A stretch of 19,577 bases of DNA. Origin: a virus (lineage: Duplodnaviria > Heunggongvirae > Uroviricota > Caudoviricetes). Under the pieces are notes generated by a model. The model was not told the DNA's origin. It was given only the letters and a program-made list of their open reading frames with translations, and ran no database searches. Positions 1,336 through 17,319 of the stretch are shown one piece after another (the first letter of the stretch is position 1; the number at the start of each line of letters is the position of its first letter). Made by a program: the position numbers and the translations under genes. The stretch spans positions 1-19,577 of the IMG/VR virus record IMGVR_UViG_2671180460_000010; one strand, written 5' to 3'.

Positions 1336-1587
1336 TCAAGTAAGATGGCGTCTTGGTCTTGCCGATGCCTGGCGCTCAATCCAGCGGTCAATTTCTTCCA
1401 GGTTGTAAAAGCATGGGCTGTTATCCCATGGCATACCGTCATGAGCGACATGCTTATATTCCCTTCCTTCCATAAACGATTTTTCCCTGGCTTTTTTTAG
1501 AGTTCCCTTTTTTATTCCTTTCAGTGCAATTAGTTGCTCTTCGGATACCCATTTACCGGGATAGACAATCATGATTACTTCGCTCAT
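1336..1587 (-). CDS. xis: Excisionase-like protein (putative Xis / recombination directionality factor)
   Basis: 83-aa ORF immediately upstream of int on the same strand, 20-nt gap. Small basic protein; the resemblance to the DUF1233-type 'putative excisionase' family (KWVSEEQLIALKGIKKGTLKKAREKSFMEGREY) is recalled from memory, not searched. Confidence 0.65.
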   Translation of the reverse strand: MSEVIMIVYPGKWVSEEQLIALKGIKKGTLKKAREKSFMEGREYKHVAHDGMPWDNSPCFYNLEEIDRWIERQASARPRRHLT

Positions 1588-1657
1588 CGCTTTTTATCTC
1601 TTACATCAGATGAGCGCCGGTTGCAGAATACCAGTCACAACCGGCGATGGTTGAACA

Positions 1658-4114
1658 TTAAAAATCAGCCTGATTCGGGATCAGTTTTTGCCAGATAGCT
1701 GAAACGTATTTTGCCTGGTGGCGGGCATCATCCAGTGCATTATGGCGCTCACCTTCGAATGGAATAGCCGTTCTGGCATCGAAGTCTATAGCTTTCCCCA
1801 GCTCAACGATTGTGCGTACATCGCGATCGTTGTAGTAACGCCACGGGCAGGGGATCCCCTGCCGTTCGTATGAACGGCGCAAAATCGTGTTGTCGAAGTT
1901 GGCTCCATTTCCCCAGACCTGAACAAAAAATTCACCGGAGTTTTCGTCGATAAATTCTCGCAATTGTAACAGTGCATCATCTAACGGGATTTCATCGGTC
2001 ATAATGGCAGATTGCGCTTCGCGTGATTGCTTCAGCCACCATTTAATGGTGTCCCGATCAATGACTCCGCCAGCAGTTTCCAGATCGATAGTCTTACTAA
2101 ATTCCGGTCCCATATCTCCGGTTTGCGGATCGAAAAATATTGCACCTATTGAGATAATCGGGGCATCAGGATTTTTTCCCATGGTTTCGAGGTCGATCAT
2201 TAGATGGTCACACGTCCTGCTGGTGGATGTGATTTCGTGATGACCGTTCACCTTAATTGAGTGATCTGCCGCCTCGCCAGTTTCATTATCGCTGGCGTGG
2301 TCCTGAGCGCTGCCAGCATTCTCCTTGTGTGGATGTTCAGCGCCTTCCATTTCCTCCGGATCATTTTCCTGAACTTCAACCTGATTCTCTTCATCGAATG
2401 TTTCCAGGTATGTTGCGTCGCCCATCACCGCGCCACAATCAGGGAAGTTGCCGCTGCCGGTCTGACCGCAGACGGTGCAAGCTTTTTCCGGTTCCTGTTG
2501 CGCTGCTGGTTCATGTTGTTTCGTTTCTGGCTCGTTTTGTAACGCATTTGGGCTGTTTTGTTCCGCTTTCTGGTCGTTCTGTTCCGTTTCTTGCTGGTTC
2601 TGATTCACTGAATCGCGGGTTTCAATCCCCTTCACCCATTTCGGATCATTCGGGTCGCTAATCCCTGCAACAAATTCACCGCGAGAGGCCGCAAGCAACT
2701 TATCGGCGTCAGGCTGGCCGATATTGGCTGCCTGCATAATTTTGTTTACTTCGTCAGCGGTAACTTTCACCTGATTAACTGGATCTACCTGTTCCTGAGT
2801 ATCCAGCGATTGCGTGTCCTGGCGATGTTCAGTTGTATCCGGTTCCATTGTTTCAGCCGTTGCCTGTTCATCTGCCAGTACGCCAGACGGTTGCGGTTTT
2901 TCTTCATCATTTTTTTCTTCTTCTGTTTCTTGCCCGGCAGCCAGCTCGCGGTTAACTTCTTCCAGGATATCTTTTTCCGGTGTATGTCGTGCAGCAGTGA
3001 GAGTTTCCTTGCTGGGGTTCTCGTGATCAGTCTCCGTTAAGTAGGCGTTGATATACCCCTGAAGGCGTCCCGGGTAATGATAAAATTCAGGGTGTGCGCT
3101 CCGGATAAGCGCAAAAATAGCGGCGCGGGAATAATCCAGGATACCCGGGATTGCGCGAAGTGCTGCGGACCATTCTTTGAACGGGCTTTCTTTCTTCCGG
3201 ACGACTTCTTTTGCGCGACGATAAACGCTGCCCGGAATTTCATAAATATTAAAATCCATCGGAAGTGTGGCCGCTGCAATCTCCACATCCAGCGTATCGA
3301 AGGTGTGTACTAAATTAGGATTGCGATCGGTTTTGTTCCCTCCACCGGCATTAGCACCGGAAGCCGTGCGGGTAATGCGTGAAACACGATTTCCTTTCAT
3401 CCACTCTTTTGTCAGCAGACCGCGATCGGTGTAGTCAGCGCCCAGGTATGCTTCGAAAAAAGCAGTCATCAGTCCCAGGTCTGAATTACCAGGATTAGGG
3501 AAAACTTTGTCCGTGTCACGAACCAGTTTGTGGAGATCGCGAATTTCCAGCGGTTCGAGTTGCGCTGCTTTATTTGAGATGGCCAGAGCGGTAACGGCGG
3601 GAAGTTTTTCATCCTGTGCGTTATGTAATGCGCGCAGTTCGTCCCGCGAAACGTGTGTGATCGGTTTTTCGCTGCCGTGCTGTGCCAGCCATCGAACAGG
3701 CAGAATCTGACCTGAAACCGGCAGGAGCATGTTCTCCTCAATCTCCGTCATGTCTTCGCCGTTGACGTTGGTATTGTCAGTGCTGGCTGGTTTGTCCTGC
3801 GCAGAGTGAGAGGTCTCAATAAATACCATTGTTATACCATCTTCCCCGCCTTTTTCGTATCGATTGCAGAATTCGGTATCAAACACGCCTTCCGGAGGAA
3901 GGTCATTCACAATGGGTAAATGGACGCGAACAGGTTTTTTAAAATCCTCTTCGTCAAATCCGGCATCGTCCATTGCGACAACACCGCGTGATATTGCAAC
4001 CGATAATTTTTTTGCTGTGCGCCAGTAAAAACCGCCTTTAATCCCAAGGCGTTTTCTGACTTTGTCATTTTTGGCTTCGTAATATAGTGCAATTTCTTCT
4101 TTATCAGCGCTCAT
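1658..4114 (-). CDS. Large phage protein with C-terminal DnaQ-like DEDDh 3'-5' exonuclease domain (often annotated exodeoxyribonuclease VIII-like); long acidic/Gln-rich central linker
   Basis: 818-aa ORF with GAGG RBS 7 nt upstream of the ATG at 4114. The C-terminal ~180 aa carry Exo I (MIDLETMG), Exo II ([12 protein letters not shown]) and Exo III (HNALDDARH) motifs. The central ~250 aa are low-complexity E/Q/D/T-rich. Position matches the recombination-gene slot of lambdoid phages. Confidence 0.75.
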
Positions 4115-4191
4115 TGATAAACCTCGTAACTATTTTTAGGGTGAACAAATCCCTGCCATTTCTGACATATAAAAATGAAACCGGATATTAA

Positions 4192-4395
4192 TTACGGTGC
4201 TGTTTTAAGTCCTGCCGGGACTTCGTTATTATCCATGCGAATAACTTTATCGACCGGATAACAGTTACCGGGAATTTTCTGTTCATCTGCGGCAGCCATG
4301 CATTCTTTCATTGAGCTGTATACGCCAGTAACCATGTCAACTGGTTCACCGGAAACAAGAAAAACCGTCAGAACAAGTGCAAATGTGGTATTCAT
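4192..4395 (-). CDS. Small hypothetical protein with N-terminal signal-peptide-like hydrophobic segment
   Basis: Internal Met start (MNTTFALVLTVFLVSGEP...) preceded by AGGA. Its ATG overlaps the stop of the upstream gene in an ATGA arrangement (4392..4395), suggesting translational coupling. 67 aa with 3 Cys. Confidence 0.45.
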   Translation of the reverse strand: MNTTFALVLTVFLVSGEPVDMVTGVYSSMKECMAAADEQKIPGNCYPVDKVIRMDNNEVPAGLKTAP

Positions 4396-4580
4396 TGCCA
4401 GTATCCTTTTTGCATCAGGCGTGAACGGGCCATCATTGAAACAATGCAAACCTTATTTAATGAATCCGGCTCATGCTTTATCTGGTTAATGGCATCCTCA
4501 ATAAAAGTTTTATCGCCAGTGATAACGCCAATTTCAAAACGAGTTTCAGGCGTAGTGGAATTGAGTAATAACGTTTCCAT
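4392..4580 (-). CDS. Small hypothetical protein (62 aa)
   Basis: Start METLLLNSTTPETRFEIG with GAGGA RBS upstream; ATGA overlap with the next gene. One arm of a 19-bp inverted repeat lies just upstream of its RBS. Confidence 0.45.
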   Translation of the reverse strand: METLLLNSTTPETRFEIGVITGDKTFIEDAINQIKHEPDSLNKVCIVSMMARSRLMQKGYWQ

Positions 4581-5081
4581 TATCGCGTCCTCAACAATGA
4601 ATTTTGTGATGCGGTGCCTGGTGCCTCCAGGTGACGTTAACCAGTTAACAATTAACGCCGGATACAGGGAACCCATAAACACCCGATACGGGGGAACTAA
4701 TCGCTTTTTAACTGTTCCGCGTGCGCTGAGCCGCATTCACCGCATCACAAAATTCACTTTAAAAATGGCGGACATCAGCCAGCAATTAAACTGATGCCGC
4801 CAAAGGTCAATACTCAACATGGGTTGTTGCAGCGGGGTTGTCACTCAGGCGTATGGTCAACCTGACAACCCGGTGCTACCAATGGGGGTAAGGATAACCC
4901 CGCCATACTTACCGCCGCGCCATTTCGCGGATTGCCACAACCGGAAGCGCACGGTCGAAGAAATCTAACGACAAGCCTTCTAAGGAAAAGAAACCTTCGC
5001 TGTGCGCTTTCGTGTTGTGTGCCTGCTTTTAACCACATCAGGCGAGGTGGTTTCCGTCATTCCCCAACGACAAGAAATTTG

Positions 5082-5087
5082 TATAAT
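5082..5087 (+). promoter_or_regulatory. Candidate sigma70 -10 element (TG-adjacent TATAAT) for the 5119..5637 gene
   Basis: ttTGTATAATcc lies 31 nt upstream of the ATG at 5119. The -35 is weak (ttcccc region), consistent with an extended -10 type promoter. Confidence 0.4.
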
Positions 5088-5118
5088 CCGGATACCCCAA
5101 CAACAAAGAGAGTTAAGA

Positions 5119-5637
5119 ATGCTATCTGGAATAACTTCATCAATAACGGCAATTAAAGTCTCGATTGATTTATTACAGGTAATACTTGATGCAAAAAGCC
5201 AATCTGAACGTGAAAAGGCTGTCTACGAAATGCGTCGCCAACTGGCAGACTTACAAATACAGAACGCAGAGCTAGCGAAAACGCTCGCGCTTCAGTACGA
5301 GGAAATACTCTTGCTTAAGCAAAAATGTCATGAAATTGACGAGCGTAATCGAAAACTTGAATGCTATACGATACACAAAACTGGTTTTGGGCATTTTGTC
5401 TATGCTTTCAGGAACAGCCTCGACGAAGAAGACACATGTTTTCACTATGCCTGTCCCAATTGCTATCAGCATGGTGTAATAGCAATACTTCAACCTGTTG
5501 AAATTGGTGAGCATGATAAGTTCCATATTTCTAAATGCCTGAAATGTGATTCGCGCTTTAAATTTGAACGCAATGATGACTATATACCGCCCCCATCTGA
5601 AGAAGAGATAGGTAGAGCATTGAGCAGCAATCCGTAG
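5119..5637 (+). CDS. Hypothetical coiled-coil protein with C-terminal CxxC...CxxC zinc-ribbon-like motif (172 aa)
   Basis: Start at internal Met (MLSGITSS) with GAGAG RBS. Predicted heptad-rich central segment (QLADLQIQNAELAKTLALQYEEILLLKQKCHEIDERNRKLE). C-terminus has CPNC...(22 aa)...CLKC. Opposite strand to all neighbours, with its own promoter. Confidence 0.6.
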   Translation: MLSGITSSITAIKVSIDLLQVILDAKSQSEREKAVYEMRRQLADLQIQNAELAKTLALQYEEILLLKQKCHEIDERNRKLECYTIHKTGFGHFVYAFRNSLDEEDTCFHYACPNCYQHGVIAILQPVEIGEHDKFHISKCLKCDSRFKFERNDDYIPPPSEEEIGRALSSNP

Positions 5638-5799
5638 GTTATTGCTGTTGTGGATATCCAGATTGTTAAAGAGCATGCCGGAAGGTTATCCGTGTCCGGC
5701 GCACGACCACACGTAGCAGCGTGTTGGTCTCCATTTTTAATTCACCCCTTAATGGAGGATAAAATAATCGTGGTGCTGGTCGGCTCGGTCCCGCAGGTG

Positions 5800-6447
5800 T
5801 TACCCTTTAAACCAGTCAATCCAGAGCGGATAGTGTTCAGCATAAATATAGCTATACACATCCAGGTTGTATTTGCGGTCTGTCCTTAGCAGGTCGCAAA
5901 TACAGGCCGCAGCTTCCAGGGCAGCAGCTTTGTTGCTGAATAACCATGTAGCAACATTCCGGCGATTATCTGTATCCCACTCTTTTGTGAGGGCTGACAC
6001 CACGAAGGAGCCGTTGGTGTTGCCATCAAATACTTCCGTTTCCAGATTTTTAAGTAATGCCTGGTGAATTTTTGCCAGGTATTCAGTCGGAATTTCGCCA
6101 CGAATTCGGATAAGGTTGTCATAAACAAACATGTTCCCCGCATATGGCGATTTTTCTTTCTTTTGTTCACTGGCAGGCTGGTCAATTTCGTCTTCGGTTG
6201 GTTTCGTATTGATGTTTTGCGTTATCGTTTCTGCAATGGGCTTTGCTTTATTTTCTACACAATGATTGTTTGTGAACGAATCTGAATACAGTCCGGTAAA
6301 AGAATTGCGGACATGATTTGATAAATTTCTGATGAACACTTTATCTACTAATATCATTGGGTTCCGCGCCAGTTGCGAGCGAATCACATCAGCGGCCATT
6401 TCCTGTATTGAAATTGGTAAATCTTTAAATTCCATAGTCAACCTCAT
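5800..6447 (-). CDS. Hypothetical protein (215 aa), second gene of the leftward early operon
   Basis: Long ORF with GAGG RBS. Start is 6447 (MRLT) or 6435 (MEFKDL). No motif I can assign to a known family. Confidence 0.6.
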   Translation of the reverse strand: MRLTMEFKDLPISIQEMAADVIRSQLARNPMILVDKVFIRNLSNHVRNSFTGLYSDSFTNNHCVENKAKPIAETITQNINTKPTEDEIDQPASEQKKEKSPYAGNMFVYDNLIRIRGEIPTEYLAKIHQALLKNLETEVFDGNTNGSFVVSALTKEWDTDNRRNVATWLFSNKAAALEAAACICDLLRTDRKYNLDVYSYIYAEHYPLWIDWFKG

Positions 6448-6459
6448 CAGTCGGTGGTT

Positions 6460-6666
6460 TTAAATCACTCGCGAAACGTTTAATGCCGCGCTTTTTGCCA
6501 GAGCGGTAATATCCTGCGTCACTGACGCCAGTGTTTCAGAGAGGCGCTCTTTGTGATCAGTGGCCTGCTTCAGGTCATTAATGGCGCGTATCTTCCCGCG
6601 CATCCACTCATAAAGTTCATCATCGGTATAGCCTGGCGCGATGATGACGGGTTCTCGTTTCTGCAT
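6460..6666 (-). CDS. Hypothetical protein (68 aa), first gene downstream of the pL-like promoter
   Basis: ORF 12 nt upstream of the 215-aa gene on the same strand, about 180 nt downstream of a strong leftward promoter. Not Arg-rich, so not an obvious lambda N-type antiterminator. Confidence 0.5.
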   Translation of the reverse strand: MQKREPVIIAPGYTDDELYEWMRGKIRAINDLKQATDHKERLSETLASVTQDITALAKSAALNVSRVI

Positions 6667-6854
6667 GCTGATTCCTCTCAGTGCTGTTTCCCCTTAACGC
6701 CGGGGTAGCGGAACAAAAACCTGCTGCATAGTTAAAGTTGAACCCTGCCGTCATGTTCATACGCCTCGGGCTGGCTACTTAACCCCTGACCACTGCCTGG
6801 TAACTCGAAGTATTGCCCTGCGTTCTGTGGGATGGGGTGGGTTGGCATGGGAAA

Positions 6855-6898
6855 ACTATAGGTAATGCCTAATTATTTGTCAATAGGCTATGCCTAAT
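6855..6898 (-). promoter_or_regulatory. pL-like early-left promoter with overlapping operator half-sites (OL-like)
   Basis: On the minus strand: TTGACA (plus coords 6878..6883), 17-nt spacer, TATAGT (6855..6860). The -35 is embedded in ATTAGGCatagcctATT, and further GCCTAAT half-sites occur at about 6864..6876 and 6913..6925. Confidence 0.55.
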
Positions 6899-6991
6899 GA
6901 TTTAAGGGCAACCTAATAGGTGATGGTGTGTGGGAGAGGTAGTAGGAGTTAACTAACGGGATCTAGGAATTTCCCGTCGGACCATATAAGT

Positions 6992-7468
6992 TTAAGTACC
7001 TGTCTTGGTGATATTCTGGCTTTTCCGTTTTGATTCTTGATTTTTCAAATAGTTACCTACCTTCATTTCCATTGCGGCAATGTAGGCGCGAACGTCATGA
7101 TCAACCCAACTAGGCTCCGTAGCATTTCCAGATAAGAGGAAAGCTACAATTGCTCTTTTTTCATCAGAGGCGGCTTGATAAAGGCTGTTTATGTCTAAGA
7201 GTTCACTTTTTGTATCTGAAGTGGATGGGGTTGGTATGGGGTATTCGTTAAGCCCCCAATGCTCTGGACCAACCACATCAGAAAAGAAACGCCATAGTTC
7301 TGGAAGTTTGTCTTTACTTATCGAACCTTTCTTAATCCAGTCATGGATTGATGGTGGTTGGACTTTGAAATGACGTGCGATCTCCGCCTTTGATTTGACG
7401 GCCCCTGATGCAATTTTTTTGTTAATGGCCTGCTCTATCGCTCGGCCTAAGTCTTTACCACTAAGCAT
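6992..7468 (-). CDS. Prophage repressor, HTH (XRE-like) family, RacR-like; no C-terminal S24 peptidase domain evident
   Basis: 158-aa ORF with GGAGA RBS. N-terminal HTH-like segment (KSKAEIARHFKVQPPSIHDWIKKG). Sits between mirrored promoters/operators and is divergent from a Cro-like gene. Size and arrangement match the Rac racR-ydaS-ydaT layout. Confidence 0.7.
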   Translation of the reverse strand: MLSGKDLGRAIEQAINKKIASGAVKSKAEIARHFKVQPPSIHDWIKKGSISKDKLPELWRFFSDVVGPEHWGLNEYPIPTPSTSDTKSELLDINSLYQAASDEKRAIVAFLLSGNATEPSWVDHDVRAYIAAMEMKVGNYLKNQESKRKSQNITKTGT

Positions 7469-7520
7469 TGCTTAATAGTCTCCTATGCGTATCGCGTTAG
7501 GCAATCCCTATCTTTAATGT

Positions 7521-7570
7521 ATTAGGCATAGCCTATTGACAATGATATTAGGCGCAGCCTAATATCATTG
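7521..7570 (+). promoter_or_regulatory. pR-like early-right promoter with operator palindromes (OR-like)
   Basis: -35 TTGACA (7536..7541), 18-nt spacer, -10 TAATAT (7560..7565). A 31-bp perfect palindrome CAATGATATTAGGC-gca-GCCTAATATCATTG (7540..7570) overlaps the promoter. A second site ATTAGGCatagcctATTGACAA (7521..7542) is the exact reverse complement of 6877..6898. Confidence 0.6.
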
Positions 7571-7592
7571 TGTGTTTTTTGGAGTTCACTCG

Positions 7593-7916
7593 ATGAAAAA
7601 AGAGAACTATTCATTCAAACGAGCTTGTGCTGTTGTCGGTGGGCAATCAGCAATGGCTAGGCTTTTAGGTGTATCACCTCCAAGCGTAAATCAATGGATC
7701 AAAGGTGTACGTCAGTTACCTGCTGAGAGATGTCCTGCGATTGAACGAGCAACAAAAGGTGGTGTCCTGTGTGAAGAACTTCGTCCTGATGTTGATTGGT
7801 CATACTTACGACGCTCGTCATGTTATTCGCAGAATATGTCGATGAAGCAACCAAATGACGAAAACGATCATACCCGAAGCATCAAGAGGCAAATGATTCA
7901 TGAAAATCAAGCATGA
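7593..7916 (+). CDS. ydaS: Cro-like HTH regulator, YdaS family
   Basis: Start at ATG 7593 with GGAG RBS. HTH signature (ACAVVGGQSAMARLLGVSPPSVNQWIKGVRQLP). Divergent from the repressor, and its stop overlaps the start of the next gene. Confidence 0.8.
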   Translation: MKKENYSFKRACAVVGGQSAMARLLGVSPPSVNQWIKGVRQLPAERCPAIERATKGGVLCEELRPDVDWSYLRRSSCYSQNMSMKQPNDENDHTRSIKRQMIHENQA

Positions 7917-8325
7917 ACACATCCGCATGGCGATGAATGCCTGGGCACATCTGAACGGTGAAAAAGTTCCGGCTGCGAAAATTACCAAAGCGTATTTCGA
8001 ACTGGGTATGACGTTCCCGGAACTGTACGACGACAGCCATCCGGAAGCCCTGGGCCGTAACACCCAGAAAATTTTCCGCTGGGTGGAGAAAGACACTCCT
8101 GATGCGGTTAAAAAAATTCAGGCGTTGTTACCAGCGATCGAAAAAGCGATGCCGCCTCCGCTGGTGGCCCGAATGCGCAGCCACAGTTCCGCTTATTTTC
8201 GGGAGTTGGTAGAGACGAAGGAACGGCTGGTGAAAGATATTGATGATTTCGTTGCATCAGCGATCGTTCTGTTCGATCAGATGAATCGTGGTGGCCCGGC
8301 AGGAAACACTCTGGCTGTGCATTAA
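7900..8325 (+). CDS. ydaT: YdaT-family protein (CII-like / putative toxin of the debated YdaS-YdaT pair)
   Basis: 141-aa ORF starting MKIKHEHI, overlapping the YdaS-like gene by 17 nt. Same position as ydaT in Rac-type immunity regions. Confidence 0.7.
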   Translation: MKIKHEHIRMAMNAWAHLNGEKVPAAKITKAYFELGMTFPELYDDSHPEALGRNTQKIFRWVEKDTPDAVKKIQALLPAIEKAMPPPLVARMRSHSSAYFRELVETKERLVKDIDDFVASAIVLFDQMNRGGPAGNTLAVH

Positions 8326-8338
8326 TTGGGTAATAAAT

Positions 8339-8848
8339 ATGAGTAATGACAAAAAATTGACACTGAGCGTTTACGAAAACAGTCCGCACATCTGGCGTGG
8401 CGGTTTATCTGATGTGGAGCTGGCAGAGTGGTTGATACATAAAGCTAATGCGCTGCTCTGGCGTTTGTCAGCCAGAGAGCAGCGCAAGGAAACCAGAATA
8501 AAGCTGGCTGATGCAGAAGCGTGTGCCGGGCTTATTGAGGATTATACAAATCTTGGTATTTCTTCAGCAGAGAGTGATCCCATTCAGCCTCTGAGCAGGG
8601 AGTCAATCCAGCACGCTGGTTGTATGGCACATCTTGTAACTGCTCGTCAACATGAGGTGGGTATTGGATCACTTCCGGTGGGATATTCGCTGATTACAGA
8701 GCTGGTTGAAGCAAGAAAATCAGTTCAGAAAAAGAGAGATGACGCACTTCAATTATTGAGAGAGCACTATGGCGCGATACCAGAATGCGAACAGCGTCGA
8801 TACCCTGAAGGTTATGAATGGATGCAGTCTCTTTTTGAAGCTCGCTAA
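8339..8848 (+). CDS. Hypothetical protein (169 aa)
   Basis: ORF starting at internal Met (MSNDKKLTLSV) immediately after the YdaT-like gene, in the early-right operon. No assignable motif. Confidence 0.55.
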   Translation: MSNDKKLTLSVYENSPHIWRGGLSDVELAEWLIHKANALLWRLSAREQRKETRIKLADAEACAGLIEDYTNLGISSAESDPIQPLSRESIQHAGCMAHLVTARQHEVGIGSLPVGYSLITELVEARKSVQKKRDDALQLLREHYGAIPECEQRRYPEGYEWMQSLFEAR

Positions 8849-9065
8849 TCAATATGTCGAGACGAAGGTATGTTTCGGCGCGCAGCCAGGCTCTGTAATC
8901 CGGGAGCATTTCGGGGCTGTTACACCAGCGGTTTGTTGCTGCAACATTTAATACGTGAGCCTGATAAAGGCTTTTCAAAAAATACATGTCGAACCTCCTC
9001 TGGTTCTGTCGATTGGGAACCACAGATTATATCCGGAGGAAGGTTCGGCACCAGATGAGGTAGCC

Positions 9066-10175
9066 ATGCGTGATTACGCAAAAGTTTCTCCGCGATTCTG
9101 GCTGGGAGAAACGGGGAGAGAACTTAGAAAGGCGGGTGCAGAAGCGCAAGTTGTTGCTTTTTACCTGATGACATCCCCTCACGCAAATATGCTGGGTTTG
9201 TATTACCTGCCAGTTTTATACCTTGCTCATGAAACCGGGCTTGGTCTGGAAGGGGCTTCAAAGGGGCTTAAAAGGGCTGTTGAAGCTGGTTTTTGTAGCT
9301 ATGACCATGATGCCGAGATGGTCTGGGTCCATGAAATGGCAGCCTGGCAGGTTGGGGAAACGTTGAAGCCTGGCGATAACCGTTGTGCAGGTGTCAGGAA
9401 TGAGTATGCATCATTACCTGAAAACGCTTTTCTGTCAGCGTTTTACGACAGATATAAAACGGATTTCCATCTGGATGTGAGGCGGAATAATAGCCGAAAT
9501 TCGGTAAGGGGCTTCGAAGGGGCTTTTAAGGGGCTTCGAAGCCAAGAACAGGAGCAGGAGAAAGAACAGGAACAGGACAAAAACACTATAGCTCATGGCG
9601 AAAAAAACACCACGAACCAGGCAGGGGATGTTCAGACCGTAAATTCTGGTCAGCCAGCAGGCACGACACCGGAAGCCGATTCGGCGTATGCGCTGAAAGC
9701 CGATTCGGGCGCTGTGCAGCAGGTGATGACCGCAGGGTCGGAGCAATCACACCAACTGCAGCAGCCTGAAGCCGATTCCGCCATTCAGCGGGAAGCCGAT
9801 CGGGTAGTCCCGGAAAACACCGGGCGGCCTGTGGGACGAGTGGATTATCCGGATGTGTTCGAACAGGTCTGGCGGGAATACCCGTTGCGTGCCGGGGCAA
9901 ACCCGAAGAAATCCGCATTCAGTGCCTGGAAGGCCAGATTGCGCGAGGGGGTGCCACCAGAGACCATGCTGGATGGTGTGAGGCGTTACGCGAGATACCT
10001 GGCGGCGACCGGGAAAGCGGGAACGGAATTTGTTCAGCGAGCGACGACGTTTTTTGGACCGGACCGGAATTTTGAAAACCCCTGGTTGCTCCCGGTAAGC
10101 GGCACGAACAACCAGCGTTGCGTGAATCACATTTCTGAACCGGATACCGAAATTCCGCCGGGGTTCAGGGGGTAA
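9066..10175 (+). CDS. Replication initiation protein (lambda O-like / replisome organiser) with internal iterons
   Basis: Long ORF directly upstream of a DnaC-like gene with a 6-nt gap. ATG at 9066 has a GAGG RBS; an in-frame GTG at 8955 is an alternative start. The coding sequence contains two clusters of 11-bp-phased AAGGGGCTT repeats and an A-rich tract, as in lambdoid O genes that contain ori. Confidence 0.6.
   Translation: MRDYAKVSPRFWLGETGRELRKAGAEAQVVAFYLMTSPHANMLGLYYLPVLYLAHETGLGLEGASKGLKRAVEAGFCSYDHDAEMVWVHEMAAWQVGETLKPGDNRCAGVRNEYASLPENAFLSAFYDRYKTDFHLDVRRNNSRNSVRGFEGAFKGLRSQEQEQEKEQEQDKNTIAHGEKNTTNQAGDVQTVNSGQPAGTTPEADSAYALKADSGAVQQVMTAGSEQSHQLQQPEADSAIQREADRVVPENTGRPVGRVDYPDVFEQVWREYPLRAGANPKKSAFSAWKARLREGVPPETMLDGVRRYARYLAATGKAGTEFVQRATTFFGPDRNFENPWLLPVSGTNNQRCVNHISEPDTEIPPGFRG
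9250..9620. repeat. Putative replication origin: iteron clusters (AAGGGGCTT x3 at 9250..9279 and x3 at 9506..9540, 11-bp phasing) plus A-rich tract (9545..9620)
   Basis: Direct reading. Repeats start at 9250, 9261 and roughly 9271, and at 9506, 9517 and 9528. They are followed by caggagcaggagaaagaacaggaacaggacaaaaacac...aaaaaaacacc. Confidence 0.4.
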
Positions 10176-10181
10176 CGGGTT

Positions 10182-10928
10182 ATGAAAAATATTGCGGCAG
10201 GTGGTGTTCTTGAACGCATCCGTAAGCTGGCCCCGCAGCATGTAACCGCGCCGTACCGGACAGTGGACGAGTGGCGAGAGTGGCAGCTTGCAGAAGGGCG
10301 AAAGCGTAGTGAGGAAATTAACCGCCAGAATCGCCAGATCCGGGTGGAGAAAATTATGAAGCGTTCCGGTATCCAACTGTTGCACCAGAAGTGTTCGTTT
10401 GCGAATTACCAGGTGAAGAACGACGGGCAACGATACGCGTTGAGCCAGGCGAAATCTATCGCCGATGAACTGATGACCGGATGCACAAATTTCGTGTTCA
10501 GCGGTAAGCCGGGTACCGGAAAGAACCACCTTGCAGCTGCCATTGGTAATCATCTTCTGACGAAAGGTCACAGCGTGATAGTGATAACGGTGGCAGATGT
10601 GATGCTGGCGTTACACGGCAGCTACGACAACAAGAACTCGGGCGAAAAATTTTTGCAGGGGTTGTGTGACGTCGATCTGCTGGTTCTGGATGAAATTGGT
10701 ATGCAGCGGGATACGCGCAATGAGCAGGTTACGCTGAACCAGATAGTCGATCGCAGAACGGCCTCGATGCGTAGTGTCGGAATGCTGACAAATCTGAACC
10801 ACACGGCAATGAGCGCCCTTTTAGGCGAACGGGTGATGGACCGCATGACCATGAACGGTGGTCGCTGGGTGAATTTTAACTGGGAGAGCTGGCGTTCAAA
10901 TGTCAGCCATTTAAGGGTTGTGAAGTAA
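10182..10928 (+). CDS. DnaC-like replicative helicase loader (IstB-like AAA+ ATPase)
   Basis: Walker A (FSGKPGTGKNHLAAA) and Walker B (LLVLDEIG) motifs. Tightly follows the O-like gene. 248 aa. Confidence 0.9.
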   Translation: MKNIAAGGVLERIRKLAPQHVTAPYRTVDEWREWQLAEGRKRSEEINRQNRQIRVEKIMKRSGIQLLHQKCSFANYQVKNDGQRYALSQAKSIADELMTGCTNFVFSGKPGTGKNHLAAAIGNHLLTKGHSVIVITVADVMLALHGSYDNKNSGEKFLQGLCDVDLLVLDEIGMQRDTRNEQVTLNQIVDRRTASMRSVGMLTNLNHTAMSALLGERVMDRMTMNGGRWVNFNWESWRSNVSHLRVVK

Positions 10929-10942
10929 TTTCAGGAGGACTC

Positions 10943-11335
10943 ATGGCAAGCGTTTTTACACCCGAACAGCGGGAAGAACTGAAGGCACGAATTATCGGGC
11001 TGATACACAGGAACAAACGCATGACGATGTCGCAACTGGAGAGGGAAACGGGGGCGGGCTGGCATACGGTCAGACGTTGTCTTGTGGATGTGGTTGCTTG
11101 TGGTGATTTGTACATATCCGGTAAACACGGTGTTTTTGTATCAGAACAGGCGTATCAGGCGTGGTGTAAAACTCCGAAGAAAGCTGACCCGGCACTGGTC
11201 CGGAAGTTACCTGATGGTGAAATCCGTCGCTACGACAGAGACATGAACATAATTTGCCGGGAATGCCGTAACAGCGAATCAATGCAACGTGTACTGGCGT
11301 TCTATCGGGGTAATTTTCAGGAGGTGATGGAGTGA
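10943..11335 (+). CDS. Hypothetical protein with N-terminal winged-helix-like segment (130 aa)
   Basis: ORF with AGGAGG RBS (tttcaggaggactcATG). Possible HTH at MSQLERETGAGWHTVRRCL. Its stop overlaps the next gene's start (GTGA). Confidence 0.6.
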   Translation: MASVFTPEQREELKARIIGLIHRNKRMTMSQLERETGAGWHTVRRCLVDVVACGDLYISGKHGVFVSEQAYQAWCKTPKKADPALVRKLPDGEIRRYDRDMNIICRECRNSESMQRVLAFYRGNFQEVME

Positions 11336-11628
11336 GGGCGAGGGTTTATATCGCCGGTCCAATGACGGGCTATGAAAATTTCAACCGTGAAGCATTTCAC
11401 AGGGCGGAAGAGGAACTGAAACGGGAAGGGCATACCGTCTTAAACCCGGCAGTACTTCCGGACGGACTGACTCAGTCGCAGTACATGGATATCTGCATGG
11501 CGATGATACGTTGCGTGGATGCGATTTACATGCTGAATGGCTGGCAGCGGTCGGCGGGTGCCAGGGCAGAACTGGCGCTGGCGGAGAAGCTGGGGCATGC
11601 AGTTATTTTCCAGGAGGAGGTACAGTGA
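11332..11628 (+). CDS. DUF4406-like protein (nucleoside 2-deoxyribosyltransferase-like fold)
   Basis: GTG start with AGGAGG RBS 8 nt upstream. N-terminal VYIAGPMTG motif typical of this family. 98 aa. Confidence 0.65.
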   Translation: MRARVYIAGPMTGYENFNREAFHRAEEELKREGHTVLNPAVLPDGLTQSQYMDICMAMIRCVDAIYMLNGWQRSAGARAELALAEKLGHAVIFQEEVQ

Positions 11629-11909
11629 ATATCGACGCAACAATGACGATTGGTACGGCCCTCAATACGGGGCTGGCGCTTCTTGGTTGGTGCTACGTCA
11701 TGTTCTGCTCATGGCGGTGGCTGTCACTGATGTTACTGAAAAAATGGAATAAACGCTGTAAACAGACGCAGCGGCAGAAGGCAATGAATGCGTTTGTTGA
11801 GACCTTCGATATTGACAGTATGGAACCAGGAGAGCCAGCTCGCGTGATTAGCAGAGGTGACGTTGTAATTCTTGTATACCGGAGTGAAGAGAAAAATGAG
11901 CGAAATTAA
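11625..11909 (+). CDS. Small hypothetical membrane protein (94 aa)
   Basis: GTG start overlapping the upstream stop (GTGA), with AGGAGGAGG RBS. One strongly hydrophobic segment (TIGTALNTGLALLGWCYVMFCSWRWLSLMLL). An alternative ATG start lies at 11640. Confidence 0.45.
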   Translation: MNIDATMTIGTALNTGLALLGWCYVMFCSWRWLSLMLLKKWNKRCKQTQRQKAMNAFVETFDIDSMEPGEPARVISRGDVVILVYRSEEKNERN

Positions 11910-12052
11910 CTATCAGGCACTGCGTGAAGAAGAGAAAGCATAATCCAAATCTGAATAATTAAATTCAGCACTGTAAATAAAACTTAATCCTTAACCGGAG
12001 GGATTTCTGCACCCTCAGAACATCAGGAGGCCGCCCGAAAGGGTGGTAATGA

Positions 12053-12271
12053 ATGGTCACATTATTTAGAAAAAAATATCCGCGAAGGAGTAGAACAACA
12101 GAATTTTTGTTTCTCATTCTGTTTATCGTATTGATGATACCGATATCCCCGCTAATTTTTGTCTGGGCAATCGGGAAAATAATTGAGCCAGTTATTGAAT
12201 TGTATAACGACGTGGTGTGGGCGTCGTTCAACACACTGCACAATAAAATTAATCCGTATAAGGAAAGCTGA
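12053..12271 (+). CDS. Small hypothetical membrane protein (72 aa) in AT-rich segment
   Basis: ORF with GGTGG-type RBS. Hydrophobic core (FLFLILFIVLMIPISPLIFVWAIG). Its stop lies 1 nt before the HNH gene start. Confidence 0.35.
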   Translation: MVTLFRKKYPRRSRTTEFLFLILFIVLMIPISPLIFVWAIGKIIEPVIELYNDVVWASFNTLHNKINPYKES

Positions 12272-12272
12272 T

Positions 12273-12638
12273 ATGGCACTGACGAAAAAACAACGTGCAG
12301 AGCTGCGCATGAAGTTCGGCGGTCGCTGTGCTTATTGCGGCTGCGAACTTGGCGAAAAGTGGCATGCAGACCATGTAAAACCGGTCATTCGTTTTGATGG
12401 AAATATGCTTCACCAGGAACGTGACGATATATCCAACATGGTTCCGGCATGCCACCCATGCAATCTGCACAAGCATTGCAGTAGTCTGGAAGATTATCGG
12501 CGAATTATCAGTGATGGTCGTCGTGAATTCCTTGCGTCCGGGAAAGGCAAAGCGCTGGTTCGTATGGGATTGGTTGAAATGAAATCTGACCCGGTTGTGT
12601 TCTGGTTTGAAAAATATCAAGAAGGGGCTACGGCATGA
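12273..12638 (+). CDS. HNH endonuclease
   Basis: Start at ATG 12273 with AAGGAAAG RBS. Cys/His HNH pattern: CAYCGC...WHADHVKP...NMVPACHPCNLHK. Confidence 0.8.
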   Translation: MALTKKQRAELRMKFGGRCAYCGCELGEKWHADHVKPVIRFDGNMLHQERDDISNMVPACHPCNLHKHCSSLEDYRRIISDGRREFLASGKGKALVRMGLVEMKSDPVVFWFEKYQEGATA

Positions 12639-13033
12639 CCACTTTTACCAATAGCAAACTAACAGACGAATACGTTTCAAATGCAACGTTGATTCGGCTC
12701 ATTCTGTGGGCTGACCAGCACAATAGCCATTATGTTGTAGCGGCTCTGCGCGAGCTACAGGAGCGCCGCAAGGCTGATAGTGTGTCTGTAGAAATCAACG
12801 ACGACATGGCTTACGCATTCCATCATGCACTGTCAGACTCATCTCCAGGTGCTGATGAGGTAGAGGAAATTAAGGCCGGGTTGCGTGCTGCCTTTGCCAA
12901 TGTCACTGTCCAGCCGGTGCTGATAGTGCCGGATGAAATGGATTTGCTTACCTGCCATCTCGACGGTGTAACTGAAACATATGCTGATGGCTGGAACGCC
13001 TGCCGCGCCACCATGCTTAAGGGAGATAAATAA
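12635..13033 (+). CDS. Hypothetical protein (132 aa)
   Basis: ORF in the operon, overlapping the HNH stop by 4 nt. No assignable motif. Confidence 0.55.
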   Translation: MTTFTNSKLTDEYVSNATLIRLILWADQHNSHYVVAALRELQERRKADSVSVEINDDMAYAFHHALSDSSPGADEVEEIKAGLRAAFANVTVQPVLIVPDEMDLLTCHLDGVTETYADGWNACRATMLKGDK

Positions 13034-13617
13034 TGATTAATCGAACCAAACTGGAACACATTCTCGAATATGCCAGGCAGCAGAAATGTATTGGGCAACT
13101 TTGTAAAATTCCACCAGGAGATATGGTTGAAATCGTGGAAATGGCCATGCGTAAGGCTGGCAACTCTCCGGTAACTCCGGCTCGCCTGCCTGGCGGTTTC
13201 ACCATTGAGGATGCGAAGGAGTTACATGAAGACCTGGTACGCAGCCACATAAGCCAGGCTTTAAGTTGTGAGAGGATGAAAAAGAACGATCGCGATGCTG
13301 ATTTGCGCTGGATTCATGGCGTTATAGTTCAGGCCGCGTGGTTTGTAAAAGCGTCACTGGAGCAGAATGCGCTAACGGGCAACTCTCCGGTAACACCGGC
13401 TGACTGGATAAGCTGTAGTGAGCGAATGCCTGAAAAGAACCAGAACGTGCTTATTTCGGTGAATTTCGATAGCTCTCTGGTTGAACCGCTAATATGCTCC
13501 GCACGCTATACAGGAAGCACATTCCGGCGAGGAGAAGCAACGATTAAGCCGGGTAATGGTATTGAGCAGGCAACTCACTGGATGCCGCTACCGGAGCCAC
13601 CGCAGGAGGTGAACTGA
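13033..13617 (+). CDS. DUF551-like phage protein with internal GNSPVTPA repeat
   Basis: C-terminal HWMPLPEPP motif characteristic of DUF551. A 24-nt near-exact direct repeat within the gene encodes GNSPVTPA twice. Confidence 0.65.
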   Translation: MINRTKLEHILEYARQQKCIGQLCKIPPGDMVEIVEMAMRKAGNSPVTPARLPGGFTIEDAKELHEDLVRSHISQALSCERMKKNDRDADLRWIHGVIVQAAWFVKASLEQNALTGNSPVTPADWISCSERMPEKNQNVLISVNFDSSLVEPLICSARYTGSTFRRGEATIKPGNGIEQATHWMPLPEPPQEVN

Positions 13618-14012
13618 TGAAAAATGAAGTCGACAATGTTATCACCCTTGTACAGCCAAAATCAGAGGAGGAAGGACTCCTCAACGTTGTGATAACCGAC
13701 AGAAAAAGCGTCGAGCAAAAATGCTGTCAGCATTTCCGTACAACAATTTCAGAAGTGAATCGTACGATTACCTGCAAACGGTGTGGATTGGCTTTAGATC
13801 CGTTTGAACTTGTTCTCGACCGTGCGAGAAACGGTGAAAACATCGTGTCAGAGATTAAATCACTCTATACAAAGCGGGATGCTCTTCGTGAAGCTGTGGC
13901 AAAACTTGAACGTGAAGAGAAAAACGCCAAAGCGCGGTTACGAGCAGTCAGGACAGCAATACTGTATGCGGAAAATGACCTTAAAAATATTGAGCAGGAG
14001 GTGAATCGATGA
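13617..14012 (+). CDS. Hypothetical protein with Cys-rich N-terminal half and coiled-coil-like C-terminus (131 aa)
   Basis: ORF with ATGA overlap to the upstream gene. KCCQHF...TCKRCG motif; Lys/Glu/Arg-rich C-terminal helix. Confidence 0.55.
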   Translation: MKNEVDNVITLVQPKSEEEGLLNVVITDRKSVEQKCCQHFRTTISEVNRTITCKRCGLALDPFELVLDRARNGENIVSEIKSLYTKRDALREAVAKLEREEKNAKARLRAVRTAILYAENDLKNIEQEVNR

Positions 14013-14086
14013 CCGAAGCATTCACAACGGCAGGAATTGCGATGGCGGTGGCGCTGGTGGTGTATTCGATTTGCCGCTGGGGATAA
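14009..14086 (+). CDS. Possible 25-aa hydrophobic peptide (MTEAFTTAGIAMAVALVVYSICRWG)
   Basis: ATGA-coupled to the upstream gene, AGGAGG 6 to 7 nt upstream, and followed immediately by a terminator. Too short for confident calling. Confidence 0.3.
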   Translation: MTEAFTTAGIAMAVALVVYSICRWG

Positions 14087-14092
14087 CAAACA

Positions 14093-14122
14093 AAAACCCC
14101 GGATTGACGGTCCGGGGTTTTT
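14093..14122 (+). terminator. Rho-independent terminator ending the nin-like operon
   Basis: CCCCGGA-ttgacgg-TCCGGGG stem-loop followed by TTTTT. Confidence 0.7.
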
Positions 14123-14344
14123 GAAGGAAACAAACAGAAACAACAATTGCCGTTATCTGTTGCCACCAATGACAAGTAAACGTATCTCAGGCGAGCGCAT
14201 TGCGCCGTTCTGACGCGGATACATTAGCCTGGGCAGAAGGTTCTGGCAATAAAAAATAGCGTTTTCTTATCGGTGTCGGTAAGATTGTTGCGGGTGCTTG
14301 AGGCTGTCTGCCTCGGGCATGCCACTGTAAGGCAGACAGAGAAA

Positions 14345-14447
14345 AGCCCCAGTTAACATCACGCGTCCTGCAAGACGCTTAACATTAATCTGAGGCTCAA
14401 TCCATGCTGAACACATGTAGGTTAGCCTCTTACGTGCCGAAAGGCAA
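14345..14447 (-). ncRNA. Putative Sok-like antisense RNA and its promoter (type I antitoxin)
   Basis: Minus-strand promoter: -35 TTGCCT (plus coords 14442..14447), 17-nt spacer, -10 TAACCT (14419..14424). The architecture mirrors the R1 sok promoter, which sits antisense to the hok leader. The 3' end is not defined. Confidence 0.35.
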
Positions 14448-14460
14448 GGAGAAGCAGGCT

Positions 14461-14616
14461 ATGAAGCAGCAAAAGGCGATGTTAATCGCCCTGATCGTCA
14501 TCTGTTTAACCGTCATAGTGACGGCACTGGTAACGAGGAAAGACCTCTGCGAGGTACGAATCCGAACCGGCCAGACGGAGGTCGCTGTCTTCACAGCTTA
14601 CGAATCTGAGGAGTAA
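14461..14616 (+). CDS. hok: Hok/Gef-family type I toxin (51 aa)
   Basis: MKQQKAMLIALIVICLTVIVTALVTRKDLCEVRIRTGQTEVAVFTAYESEE is a near-match to the Hok/Gef family (HokD/RelF-like). The leader GGTGCTTGAGGCTGTCTGCC...AAGGAGAAG parallels the hok mRNA fold-back elements. The in-frame upstream extension from 14404 may correspond to a mok-like translational coupling frame. Confidence 0.85.
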   Translation: MKQQKAMLIALIVICLTVIVTALVTRKDLCEVRIRTGQTEVAVFTAYESEE

Positions 14617-14687
14617 GAGACCTGGCGGGGGGATTTTTATCCCCCGCCACCTCTGATGTGTCAGGCATCCTCAACGCACCCGCACTT

Positions 14688-14710
14688 AACCCGCTTCGGC
14701 GGGTTTTTTC
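14688..14710 (+). terminator. Rho-independent terminator at the 3' end of the hok transcript
   Basis: CCCGC-ttcg-GCGGG followed by TTTTTT. A GGCGGGGGGA/TCCCCCGCC hairpin precedes it at 14624..14648. Confidence 0.7.
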
Positions 14711-14746
14711 ACGTACTGTGGTTGTGAATACGATTGGTATTAGGCT

Positions 14747-14765
14747 ATGCTAACAACATTAGCAT
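14747..14765. promoter_or_regulatory. Operator-like perfect inverted repeat ATGCTAA-caaca-TTAGCAT upstream of the antitoxin/Doc pair
   Basis: Direct reading; lies about 60 nt upstream of the small ORF at 14828, near TTGTGA/TATGCT and TTGACT promoter-like hexamers. Confidence 0.4.
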
Positions 14766-14827
14766 GACTAATTTTGTATTGACTTAATTTTTGTTAAAGA
14801 ACAGGACGGAGAAGTAAGGGTACACCA

Positions 14828-15007
14828 ATGAGCTACGCACTAAAAAAACACCCGCGATTGACTATTCCCCCTCGCGATAAAAGCGTTGTGGCAGATCCGC
14901 GCCCGGCTATCGATGAAAATTGTACTCATCGTGAGCAGGTGAAAAATGCTTTCGATTTCGGTTTTTCTCGTTACGAGAAGGCAATGGAAGATCTTTCAAA
15001 AGTGTAA
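14828..15007 (+). CDS. Small protein upstream of Doc-family toxin; putative cognate antitoxin (59 aa)
   Basis: Short ORF (below the ORF-track cutoff) with AAGGG RBS, ending 18 nt before the Doc-like gene. Typical antitoxin-toxin gene order. No family assignment possible from sequence alone. Confidence 0.45.
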   Translation: MSYALKKHPRLTIPPRDKSVVADPRPAIDENCTHREQVKNAFDFGFSRYEKAMEDLSKV

Positions 15008-15025
15008 TGATAGGTATTGTGCTCT

Positions 15026-15511
15026 ATGGCTGAGATTGTTGAAGGAGTGCACTACCTCTCGGTTGATGATCTTACTGAAATCAATCGCCTTTTAATTGAG
15101 CTTCAAACACCAGATGAACCTGTTGGTGTGCTGAGTGTTGATAATTTAAGTTCTTCTCAGTCTCGTCCCAGTATGGTTCGATGGTATGAGCAAACCAACG
15201 ACATGTTTGTACTGGCATCGGTATTGATTGAAAGTCTGATTCAGAATCATCCATTTGCCAATGCAAACAAGCGCACAGCAATGATGGCTGGTGCGGTTTT
15301 TTTATTGTTAAATGGATACGAATTAACCGCGCCAGGCGATGAAGTTGTGGAGATGGCTGAGGGGCTGGCCTGTAAAATTTATACACGAGAAGAGCTTGAA
15401 AATTGGTTGTGTTATTGGTCTCGTGCGTATGACAGTCGGGAATTATGTAAAACAGGCGCAACTATTGTTTTGTATGAAACGATCAAGCTTAAAATAGAAC
15501 AGCAAAACTAA
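15026..15511 (+). CDS. doc: Doc/Fic-family toxin (death-on-curing-like)
   Basis: Motif HPFANANKRTAMMAGAVFLLLNGY matches the Doc signature HxFx(D/N)ANKR. An alternative TTG start lies at 15017. Confidence 0.8.
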   Translation: MAEIVEGVHYLSVDDLTEINRLLIELQTPDEPVGVLSVDNLSSSQSRPSMVRWYEQTNDMFVLASVLIESLIQNHPFANANKRTAMMAGAVFLLLNGYELTAPGDEVVEMAEGLACKIYTREELENWLCYWSRAYDSRELCKTGATIVLYETIKLKIEQQN

Positions 15512-15525
15512 AGATGCTTCTAATG

Positions 15526-15555
15526 AAAACCCGCTTTGGCGGGTTTTGTTTTTTC
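15526..15555 (+). terminator. Rho-independent terminator after the Doc-like gene
   Basis: AAAACCCGC-tttg-GCGGGTTTT followed by GTTTTTTC. Confidence 0.75.
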
Positions 15556-15626
15556 TGCGTATTCTGGTTTACAATTTGCACGCCAGCCTGAACAACTGGC
15601 ACCTGCTGCGCCAGCAGAGAAAACCG

Positions 15627-15899
15627 ATGGCGCACAATACCAAACCACACAATTCTGATACCGTCTTTGCCAGCAGGCGCGGACGGCATTCGCACATATT
15701 TAAAGCTGACTGGTACCAGCATGATCCATGCACTGAAGAACAGGCCGAATGGCTGATTCAGAACTACCGCAGACGCGGATACGAGATTAAGAAAGCCCTC
15801 AGCCTCGATTATCGTCACTGGATAATCTACGTCAGGCTGCCGTACTCCGAGCGCCCACCGCGTCCGTCCCGTACATTCCAGCAACGCATCTGGAGGTAA
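15627..15899 (+). CDS. Hypothetical protein (90 aa), basic
   Basis: Internal Met start (MAHNTKPHN) chosen because the upstream part of the ORF overlaps the terminator. Weak RBS. Precedes the YdfU-like gene; its stop is 1 nt before the GTG of that gene. Confidence 0.4.
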   Translation: MAHNTKPHNSDTVFASRRGRHSHIFKADWYQHDPCTEEQAEWLIQNYRRRGYEIKKALSLDYRHWIIYVRLPYSERPPRPSRTFQQRIWR

Positions 15900-15900
15900 C

Positions 15901-16947: not shown

Positions 16948-16959
16948 AAGAGGTTACTG

Positions 16960-17319
16960 ATGCGTATAGAGTTTGTTTTGCCTTACCCGCCGACGGTGAA
17001 CACTTACTGGCGACGTCGTGGCAGCACATATTTTATATCGGAAGCCGGTAAGCGTTATCGCCGTGATGTGGCACTTATTGTTCGCCAGCAGCGGCTGAAA
17101 TTAAACCTGTCCGGAAGGCTGGCGATAACGGTTATCGCAGAGCCGCCGGATAAACGCCGTCGTGACCTGGACAATATCCTGAAAGCACCGCTGGATGCGT
17201 TGACGCATGCGGGACTGCTTATCGACGACGAGCAGTTTGATGAAATCAATATTGCGCGCGGTCAGGTCGTTCCCGGTGGGCGGCTGGGCGTGAAGATTTA
17301 CAAAATTGAAAGTGAGTGA
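16960..17319 (+). CDS. rusA: Holliday junction resolvase RusA
   Basis: 119 aa with AGAGG RBS. Characteristic LPYPPTVNTYWRRRG and DKRRRDLDNILKAPLDAL motifs (catalytic Asp cluster). Confidence 0.85.
   Translation: MRIEFVLPYPPTVNTYWRRRGSTYFISEAGKRYRRDVALIVRQQRLKLNLSGRLAITVIAEPPDKRRRDLDNILKAPLDALTHAGLLIDDEQFDEINIARGQVVPGGRLGVKIYKIESE

Follow-up and report, generated by a model that had tools for sequence, protein, structure and literature searches.

A candidate two-part replication origin within the initiator gene of a lambdoid prophage

In phage λ, the sites bound by the replication initiator lie inside the initiator's own gene. The iterons of ori are part of gene O, where the sequence for the N-terminal DNA-binding domain passes into that for a flexible linker; four of them, each of ~19 bp and dyad-symmetric, form one array, which adjoins an easily melted AT-rich region. 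Other replicons, such as P4 (ori/crr), F (incB/incC) and P1 (oriR/incA), have two-part sets of the same initiator repeat that are thought to be bridged by the initiator. The P4 arrays are in opposite orientation; in this group the arrays either flank the rep gene or are separated by kilobases, and the iterons measure 8 to ~22 bp and follow other spacings than those found here. The plasmid origins have DnaA boxes and AT-rich 13-mers. In the present work we analyzed a 19,577-bp stretch of DNA from a tailed phage of the class Caudoviricetes (IMG/VR record IMGVR_UViG_2671180460_000010, positions 1 to 19,577; hereafter, the window). The gene at 9066-10175 is the initiator of the phage's replication module, and its coding sequence carries two arrays of a 9-bp repeat, AAGGGGCTT. 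Our favored reading, to which we assign a probability of about 70%, is that the arrays are iterons for the winged-helix N-terminal domain (N-domain) of the initiator and that, with a purine-rich hexamer tract next to the second array, they would constitute the origin of this lambdoid prophage.

A further precedent is phage SPP1, whose gp38 protein binds oriL direct repeats that lie within gene 38, the gene that encodes it; genes for a helicase loader and a helicase follow, the SPP1 origins contain an AT-rich DNA unwinding element (DUE) and a second origin, oriR, lies ~13 kb away (PMC6316719). The window is like SPP1 oriL and the replisome organizers in having repeats within the gene of their presumed binder, a helicase-loader gene next to it and an N-domain whose model comes nearest to "Replisome organizer"; it is unlike SPP1 in that there is no match to Phage_rep_org_N, that a single gene holds both arrays and that an AT-rich DUE is not apparent. 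The initial annotation had recognized a λ ori arrangement, and part of this stands on comparative grounds. As in λ, the sites occupy an initiator gene at the boundary between N-domain and linker, beside a strand-asymmetric A-rich stretch; the gene comes after the immunity region and before a helicase-delivery gene, and, with respect to the C-terminal helicase-recruitment module, the N-terminal module (N-module) and the repeats are exchanged together. The details, however, depart from λ: the sites are 9 bp long, recur every 11 bp and form two arrays, often in opposite orientation among relatives, instead of one array of four; one array lies in sequence that encodes a structured domain; the tract is not AT-rich; the partner is DnaC-like rather than λ P; and the protein is not a member of Phage_rep_O. 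With P4 and the iteron plasmids the window shares the two-part sets of one repeat but not the DnaA boxes of the plasmids. The P4 α and Rep_3 (RepE/RepA) initiators are unrelated to the window protein, and a Rep_3-type iteron plasmid replicon can be dismissed given the lack of a Rep_3 match, the 11-bp period and the lack of a DnaA box in the gene region. By analogy, the window origin would be functionally similar to λ ori and SPP1 oriL while standing outside both families by sequence. An origin is likely at this place, although neither λ-type in its details nor built on an O homolog. It would be a variation on a known theme, set apart by being two-part, by 9-bp sites at an 11-bp period and by having neither an AT-rich element nor DnaA boxes.

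Arrays, tract and the marks of selection

The window contains five exact copies of AAGGGGCTT, at 9250, 9261, 9506, 9517 and 9528, all on the plus strand and all inside the initiator gene. Chance would account for 0.13 copies, and 0 of 200 dinucleotide-preserving shuffles reached five. Relaxing the motif to AAGSSSCTT retrieves the same five sites and nothing else. The period is exactly 11 bp within each cluster, and 256 bp separate the start of the first (9250) from that of the second (9506), as had been noted at the outset. Three repeats per cluster had also been reported; this is correct for the second cluster, whereas the first has two exact copies and a third in-phase position (9272-9280, AAAGGGCTG) that matches at 7 of 9 bases. 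The latter and the next position in phase (AAGCTGGTT at 9283) may be nonfunctional as sites. One 11-bp step past each cluster lies a partial site starting with AAGC (9283 and 9539). We saw no other repeat cluster in the window that would be fit to be an origin.

The layout is shared by a large family. A protein search with the N-domain, combined with a genome scan, identified 80 loci in Gammaproteobacteria, Betaproteobacteria and a few other groups; removal of genes more than 90% identical in DNA left 69 non-redundant genes, whose proteins are 46-79% identical and whose hosts are of Entero-, Acinetobacter-, Burkholderia-type and other kinds. Of these genes, 62 have both arrays in the same layout. 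Array 1 occupies gene nucleotides 185/196 in 63 genes. Array 2, found in 65 and mostly as the reverse complement, consists of two or three sites and begins 232-291 nt after array 1 (about 245-267 nt in the recurring layout), in steps of ~11. Of the 145 within-array spacings, 125 equal 11 bp. Likewise, 65 of the 69 genes have a (GARCAR)3-16 tract, which begins exactly 9 nt past the last site in 54 of 63. Orientation varies: 33 genes have array 1 as "+ +" and array 2 as "- -" or "- - -", mixed orientations also occur within array 2, and the window is in a minority with its all-plus arrangement, which it shares with relatives from Citrobacter, Raoultella, Arsukibacterium and Proteus. In PhiR5_2 and the Shigella 75/02 Stx phage (~76% DNA identity), array 1 is conserved in the alignment, and array 2 presents the reverse-complement motif (AAGCCCCTT, GAGCCCCTT) with the 11-bp phase kept and the peptide changed. 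Among relatives, the array 2 peptide is EGASKGL or EAPSKPL(H), followed by RSQEQEQE.

One relative, the viable Acinetobacter phage B1251, is represented by a complete 45-kb genome. Its GGGG/CCCC-type sites are confined to positions 5611, 5830, 5841, 6097 and 6108, all in the homologous gene or just upstream of it, and no other repeat cluster fit for an origin was seen in the genome. The B1251 RefSeq record (L087, NC_019541.1; gene 5649-6542) annotates the initiator coding sequence from 5916, and this omits array 1 and the whole N-terminal DNA-binding domain (homology from 5649). Divergent loci, about 46% identical, show other combinations. A Coxiellaceae locus (L081) is without array 1 and keeps array 2, and in an Undibacterium-type group the EQ tract is kept and the palindrome GGAAGGACCTTCC lies close to where array 2 would be. 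The divergent members suggest that array 2 and the tract form the conserved core.

Because of the 11-bp period, successive copies of the repeat are read in all three frames. Codon use tells what is being conserved. We compared the motif with the rest of the gene in 35 non-redundant genes, all of which encode EGASKGL at array 1. The two Gly positions use GGG in 100% and 94% of the genes (22% in the rest of the gene), Leu is CTT in 91% (12%), Ala is GCT in 77% (17%) and Glu is GAA in 100% (49%), while the spacer between sites, formed by the third base of the Ser codon, is free to vary. The bias holds also in 22 hosts with a GC content of at least 58%, and it is unlikely to be an artefact of shared ancestry since the genes compared are less than 90% identical in nucleotide sequence. 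In 57 gap-free genes, synonymous-codon entropy over codons 1-140 shows strong suppression at codons 60-68 and 73 only, codon 73 being a GAA in the degenerate stretch after array 1 (ratio 0.42). Where array 2 flips its orientation the peptide changes (EGASKGL versus EAPSKPL) and the DNA motif stays. Judged by these patterns, the repeats are under selection as DNA rather than as protein.

The A-rich tract of about 75 bp first noted after the second cluster is confirmed (Table 1), and is in the top 0.13% of the 76-nt segments of the window for single-base richness. Its designation as an AT-rich unwinding region does not hold. The GC content of 45% compares with ~48% for the window, the tract averages 52% GC in the family, with values of up to 67% where it is (GAGCAG)n, and 40-mers from it have a nearest-neighbour stability of only z = +1.3; neither composition nor stability thus supports a classical AT-rich DUE. 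The (GARCAR)5 core (9546-9575) encodes EQEQEKEQEQ. Five loci keep the hexamer tract at an unchanged distance from the sites but translate it in a different frame, giving (GA)n or EGEREG. This suggests DNA-level selection on the tract, short of proof because third positions within it vary as they do elsewhere. Among E. coli prophages that are 95-98% identical, the hexamer tract differs in length by multiples of 6 nt, with matched lengths of 555, 561, 567 and 579 nt in E. coli genomes (H15, H45, H47; L003); it behaves like a slippage-prone microsatellite. A consensus scan also marked a terminator-like hairpin with a T-run on the minus strand (9589-9619), formed by the complement of the A-rich tract; its stem is weak, such sites are just as numerous as shuffling predicts and it is probably due to chance. 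The least stable duplex in the gene is found between the arrays. Its instability is mild and there is no synonymous constraint in its conserved codons up to codon 140 (nt 9485); this stretch is an alternative candidate for initial melting.

The initiator and its exchangeable N-terminal module

The open reading frame of the initiator truly starts at the ATG at 9066, its homologs beginning with MRDY. The protein falls in phrog_1701 ("DnaD-like helicase loader", E = 2e-145) and has a weak PHROG match to "replisome organizer DnaA-like" (E = 3e-4). The label "O-like" used in the initial annotation has to be given up: no Pfam-A family, including Phage_rep_O, Phage_rep_org_N and Rep_3, matches the whole protein at E ≤ 0.01, no NCBIfam family matches it beyond a short DnaT tail and a profile search with the N-domain against PDB sequences gave no match. 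Residues 1-165 were modelled with AlphaFold2 on the basis of 66 homologs; the model is confident, with a mean predicted local distance difference test score (pLDDT) of 83 over these residues and means of 86-98 for ten-residue blocks across residues 11-140. Its topology is that of a winged helix (α1 25-36, β1 45-47, α2 50-57, α3 60-73, β2 77-80, β3 85-88), the fold being nearest to that of viral and phage "replisome organizer" N-domains; residues 143-165 are predicted to be disordered. In canonical winged-helix domains, the helix corresponding to α3 is the recognition helix. If the model is right, array 1 (codons 62-68) would be coded within this helix. Array 2 falls in the predicted disordered segment, and together with the tract it would be coded in the inter-domain linker, as are the iterons in λ O.

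The last 24 residues of the protein resemble the C-terminus of E. coli DnaT. In a phmmer search the tail (…SEPDTEIPPGFRG) matches the DnaT chains 6aep, 2ru8 and 9zbt of the PDB; the NCBIfam model PRK02854, for which the cut-off is 201 bits, aligns to these residues alone and scores 17.9. Such a tail suggests mimicry of a host primosome contact. It is also the reason why some records annotate the initiator as "primosomal protein I"; the full-length DnaT equivalog match is absent, and the protein is not a DnaT homolog overall.

The two modules of the gene meet at a joint (9576-9585). Megablast matches to several E. coli phages that differ upstream (H4-H10) begin at query position 581, which corresponds to 9580 in the window. 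Particularly informative is Escherichia phage Tritos (initiator gene L084:1026-2096; also L085 and L086). In a BLASTP comparison with the window initiator, the C-terminal 201 residues are 93% identical, from residue 169, whereas no similarity is detectable between the first ~155 Tritos residues and ~168 residues of the window protein. The Tritos N-module has a repeat of its own, (T)GTCACG, with a 10-11-bp period; four copies (L084:1154-1192) and five copies (1414-1462) lie 260 bp apart, and the second array is followed by an A-rich 12-nt repeat (ACAGATAAAGAT)x3, after which comes the joint with the shared module. Tritos-type genes thus have in common with the window the C-terminal module and the presence of two arrays and an A-rich tract in the N-module coding region; they differ in the N-module itself, in the repeat and in having no DnaC-like gene after the initiator. 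As a new N-module brings a new repeat in the same two-array layout, it is the N-domain, rather than a host factor, to which the repeats are tied. The AAGGGGCTT sites, then, are unique to the initiator gene and go with the N-module, and initiators of this class may generally follow the two-array plan. A scan of viral contigs with the Tritos N-module returned identical copies only.

The shared C-terminal module contains repeats of a different sort. Four in-frame copies resembling GAAGCCGATTC, at 9672, 9696, 9768 and 9792 (window 9672-9802), encode (E/K)AD(S/R) repeats and share 9 of 11 bases with the reverse iteron 11-mer. They are present in Tritos too and are therefore not tied to the N-module.

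Possible mechanism and rival readings

Initiation at such an origin can be pictured as follows. Initiator monomers would fill the 11-bp-phased sites of each array along a single face of the helix, and the arrays, ~250 bp apart, might be bridged or wrapped into a single nucleoprotein complex. The resulting strain, possibly together with rightward transcription through the gene, would open the duplex, either at the purine tract beside array 2 or in the weak stretch between the arrays. The C-terminal module with its DnaT-like tail could then recruit the DnaC-like loader encoded by the next gene and host DnaB. It is tempting to go further and speculate on an origin class without an AT-rich element, in which the arrays, one of them in recognition-helix codons, are bridged and the invariant, T-free (GARCAR)n, at its set distance of 9 nt from the last site, serves as the opening and loading element. 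The tract would be a single-strand platform with a 3-nt period and not merely the code for an (EQ)n linker, in logic comparable to the DnaA-trios of bacterial oriC. This extension is a long shot.

Several facts speak against an origin at the arrays. The gene has no classical AT-rich unwinding element, its tract being purine-skewed, and no DnaA box was found near or within the gene region. Third positions of the tract vary between both purines much as elsewhere, and conservation of the tract could be mostly at the protein level, as (EQ)n. The Undibacterium-type subfamily (L073, L076, L077, L080; ~46% identity) is without array 1 and has no clear replacement repeat, and thus gives no case, inside the family, of the repeat changing along with the N-module. 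In the searchable literature we found no experimental binding or origin activity for any member of the family and no description of the origin, replication regions of prophages and Stx phages included, the motif itself yielding unrelated primer matches only; this is not proof of absence. The Eru1-3 replication types are different proteins. Finally, certain Acinetobacter loci (L010, L017, L026, L029, L033, L045, L051) have one to three extra AAGSSSCTT-type sites, exact or with one mismatch. These extra sites, 16-40 nt upstream of the start codon and over the ribosome-binding region, suit autoregulation. From here it is a short step to regarding all the sites as operators through which the initiator controls its own synthesis or sets up a transcriptional roadblock, the true origin being elsewhere. 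Plasmid Rep proteins often autoregulate via their own sites, and the lack of an AT-rich element next to the arrays would no longer be troublesome. Nevertheless, the window and most relatives have no sites near the promoter or the start codon; those they do have, 185 and ~440 nt into the coding region, are poorly placed for promoter control. Operators would also leave the fixed 9-nt link to the hexamer tract without an obvious role, and neither the window nor the B1251 genome offers another origin-like cluster. We consider it unlikely that autoregulation is the sole function of the sites.

Selection at the DNA level does not specify the binding partner, and the sites might be occupied by another protein, whether a host nucleoid protein or a phage product, or might play a different DNA role such as a signal for recombination and module exchange, a thought encouraged by the position of the module joint directly after the tract. 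This we hold to be improbable, given that the same 9-mer recurs across Escherichia-, Acinetobacter- and Burkholderia-type hosts, that it is replaced when the N-module alone is replaced and that the motif matches no DnaA box. The notion that the repeats have no DNA function and simply follow from protein repeats or a conserved peptide draws on the near invariance of EGASKGL, located in the predicted recognition helix, and on the tract encoding a plausible flexible (EQ)n linker with variable third positions. It is very hard to reconcile with copies read in three frames, with rare codons fixed at the sites even in GC-rich hosts next to a free spacer base, with a peptide that changes when array 2 switches orientation and with the five loci that keep the tract DNA while its product there is (GA)n or the like; on the strength of the reading frames and the codon statistics we reject a protein-level repeat. 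An equally remote idea has the arrays pairing in RNA or single-stranded DNA (ssDNA) as a long-range stem, for translational control or as a hairpin for primosome assembly. Pairing over ~20 nt would be possible in about half of the relatives, those in which array 2 reverse-complements array 1, and array 2 alone can fold into a 10-bp ssDNA hairpin (9510-9543, -11 kcal/mol, z = -3.6) through the palindromic site junctions CTTCGAAG. Such a hairpin is probably a by-product, however, since the site itself (GAAG-SSS-CTTC) is near-palindromic; orientations are mixed within array 2 in some genes, and in the window, as in the Citrobacter, Raoultella and Proteus relatives, the two arrays have the same orientation and therefore cannot pair. 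We thus return to the arrays as iterons of the initiator.

Genomic context and implications

The features considered are listed in Table 1. The initiator gene is preceded by genes for a cI-like repressor, a Cro-like protein and a YdaT-like protein, the gene order being immunity region, initiator, helicase-delivery gene. Rightward transcription from a pR-like promoter would cross the initiator gene. Between the YdaT-like gene and the initiator, an open reading frame on the plus strand (8288-8848; phrog_8304, function unknown) overlaps one on the minus strand (8694-9023); in E. coli O157:H7 EDL933 the place corresponding to 8288-9023 is taken by a minus-strand gene of the "ECs1072 family".

Table 1. 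Positions in the window of the initiator gene, the candidate origin elements and neighboring features
Feature	Position	Strand	Remarks
pR-like promoter consensus before the cro-like gene	7536..7565	+	consensus scan only, 10/12 matches; no proof of function
Replication initiator gene, 369 aa	9066..10175	+	N-terminal DNA-binding module, disordered linker, C-terminal helicase-recruitment module
Winged-helix N-terminal domain coding region, aa 1-142	9066..9491	+	predicted
Array 1: two exact AAGGGGCTT sites (9250, 9261), 11-bp phase	9250..9269	+	codons 62-68, EGASKGL
Degenerate in-phase positions after array 1: AAAGGGCTG (9272), AAGCTGGTT (9283)	9272..9291	+	weak
Least stable duplex within the gene, between the arrays	9399..9480		40-mer ΔG z = +1.2 to +1.5; GC 35% at 9400-9459
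Array 2: three exact AAGGGGCTT sites (9506, 9517, 9528)	9506..9536	+	11-bp phase, three frames, VRGFEGAFKGL
Partial site AAGCCAAGA leading into the purine-rich hexamer tract	9539..9575	+	(GARCAR)5 = 9546-9575
A-rich, T-poor tract	9540..9615	+	A 50%, T 5%, purines 74%, GC 45%
Module joint	9576..9585		downstream of ~9580 the gene is ~95% identical to phages with an undetectably similar N-module
DnaT-like C-terminal tail, 24 residues	10101..10172	+	SEPDxxIPPGFRG; matches the E. coli DnaT C-terminus
DnaC/IstB-like AAA+ helicase-loader gene, presumed initiator partner	10182..10928	+	Pfam IstB_IS21 1.5e-17, Bac_DnaA 1.5e-7

The gene that follows the initiator differs from one relative to the next. 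Among 55 relatives it is DnaB-like in 20, DnaC/IstB-like in 11 and λ P-like in 3; partner swapping at this place is typical of phage initiators. The hexamer tract is kept with all three kinds of neighbor, which weakens the idea that it is tied to a DnaC-like partner.

The module is widespread. It is found, 98% identical, in the EDL933 prophage beside yccA, and the N-terminal 555 nt of the initiator gene are matched in 547 of 5,426 complete E. coli genomes. It is also present in the Shiga-toxin phages 75/02 Stx and POCJ13, in phages of Acinetobacter and Klebsiella and in many Betaproteobacteria. In a plasmid collection the N-domain turned up in 6 records only, with no obvious minimal replicon among them.

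If confirmed, these findings would establish where a widespread replication module without a Pfam family has its origin and what its initiator recognizes. Origins in such prophages could then be located by a simple sequence signature, a pair of AAGSSSCTT arrays with (GARCAR)n behind them, and the conservation of the peptides EGASKGL/EAPSKPL and SQEQEQ would be explained, making the locus a clean example of overlapping protein and DNA codes. Possible uses would include the construction of phage-derived replicons and the prediction of replication incompatibility between co-resident prophages.

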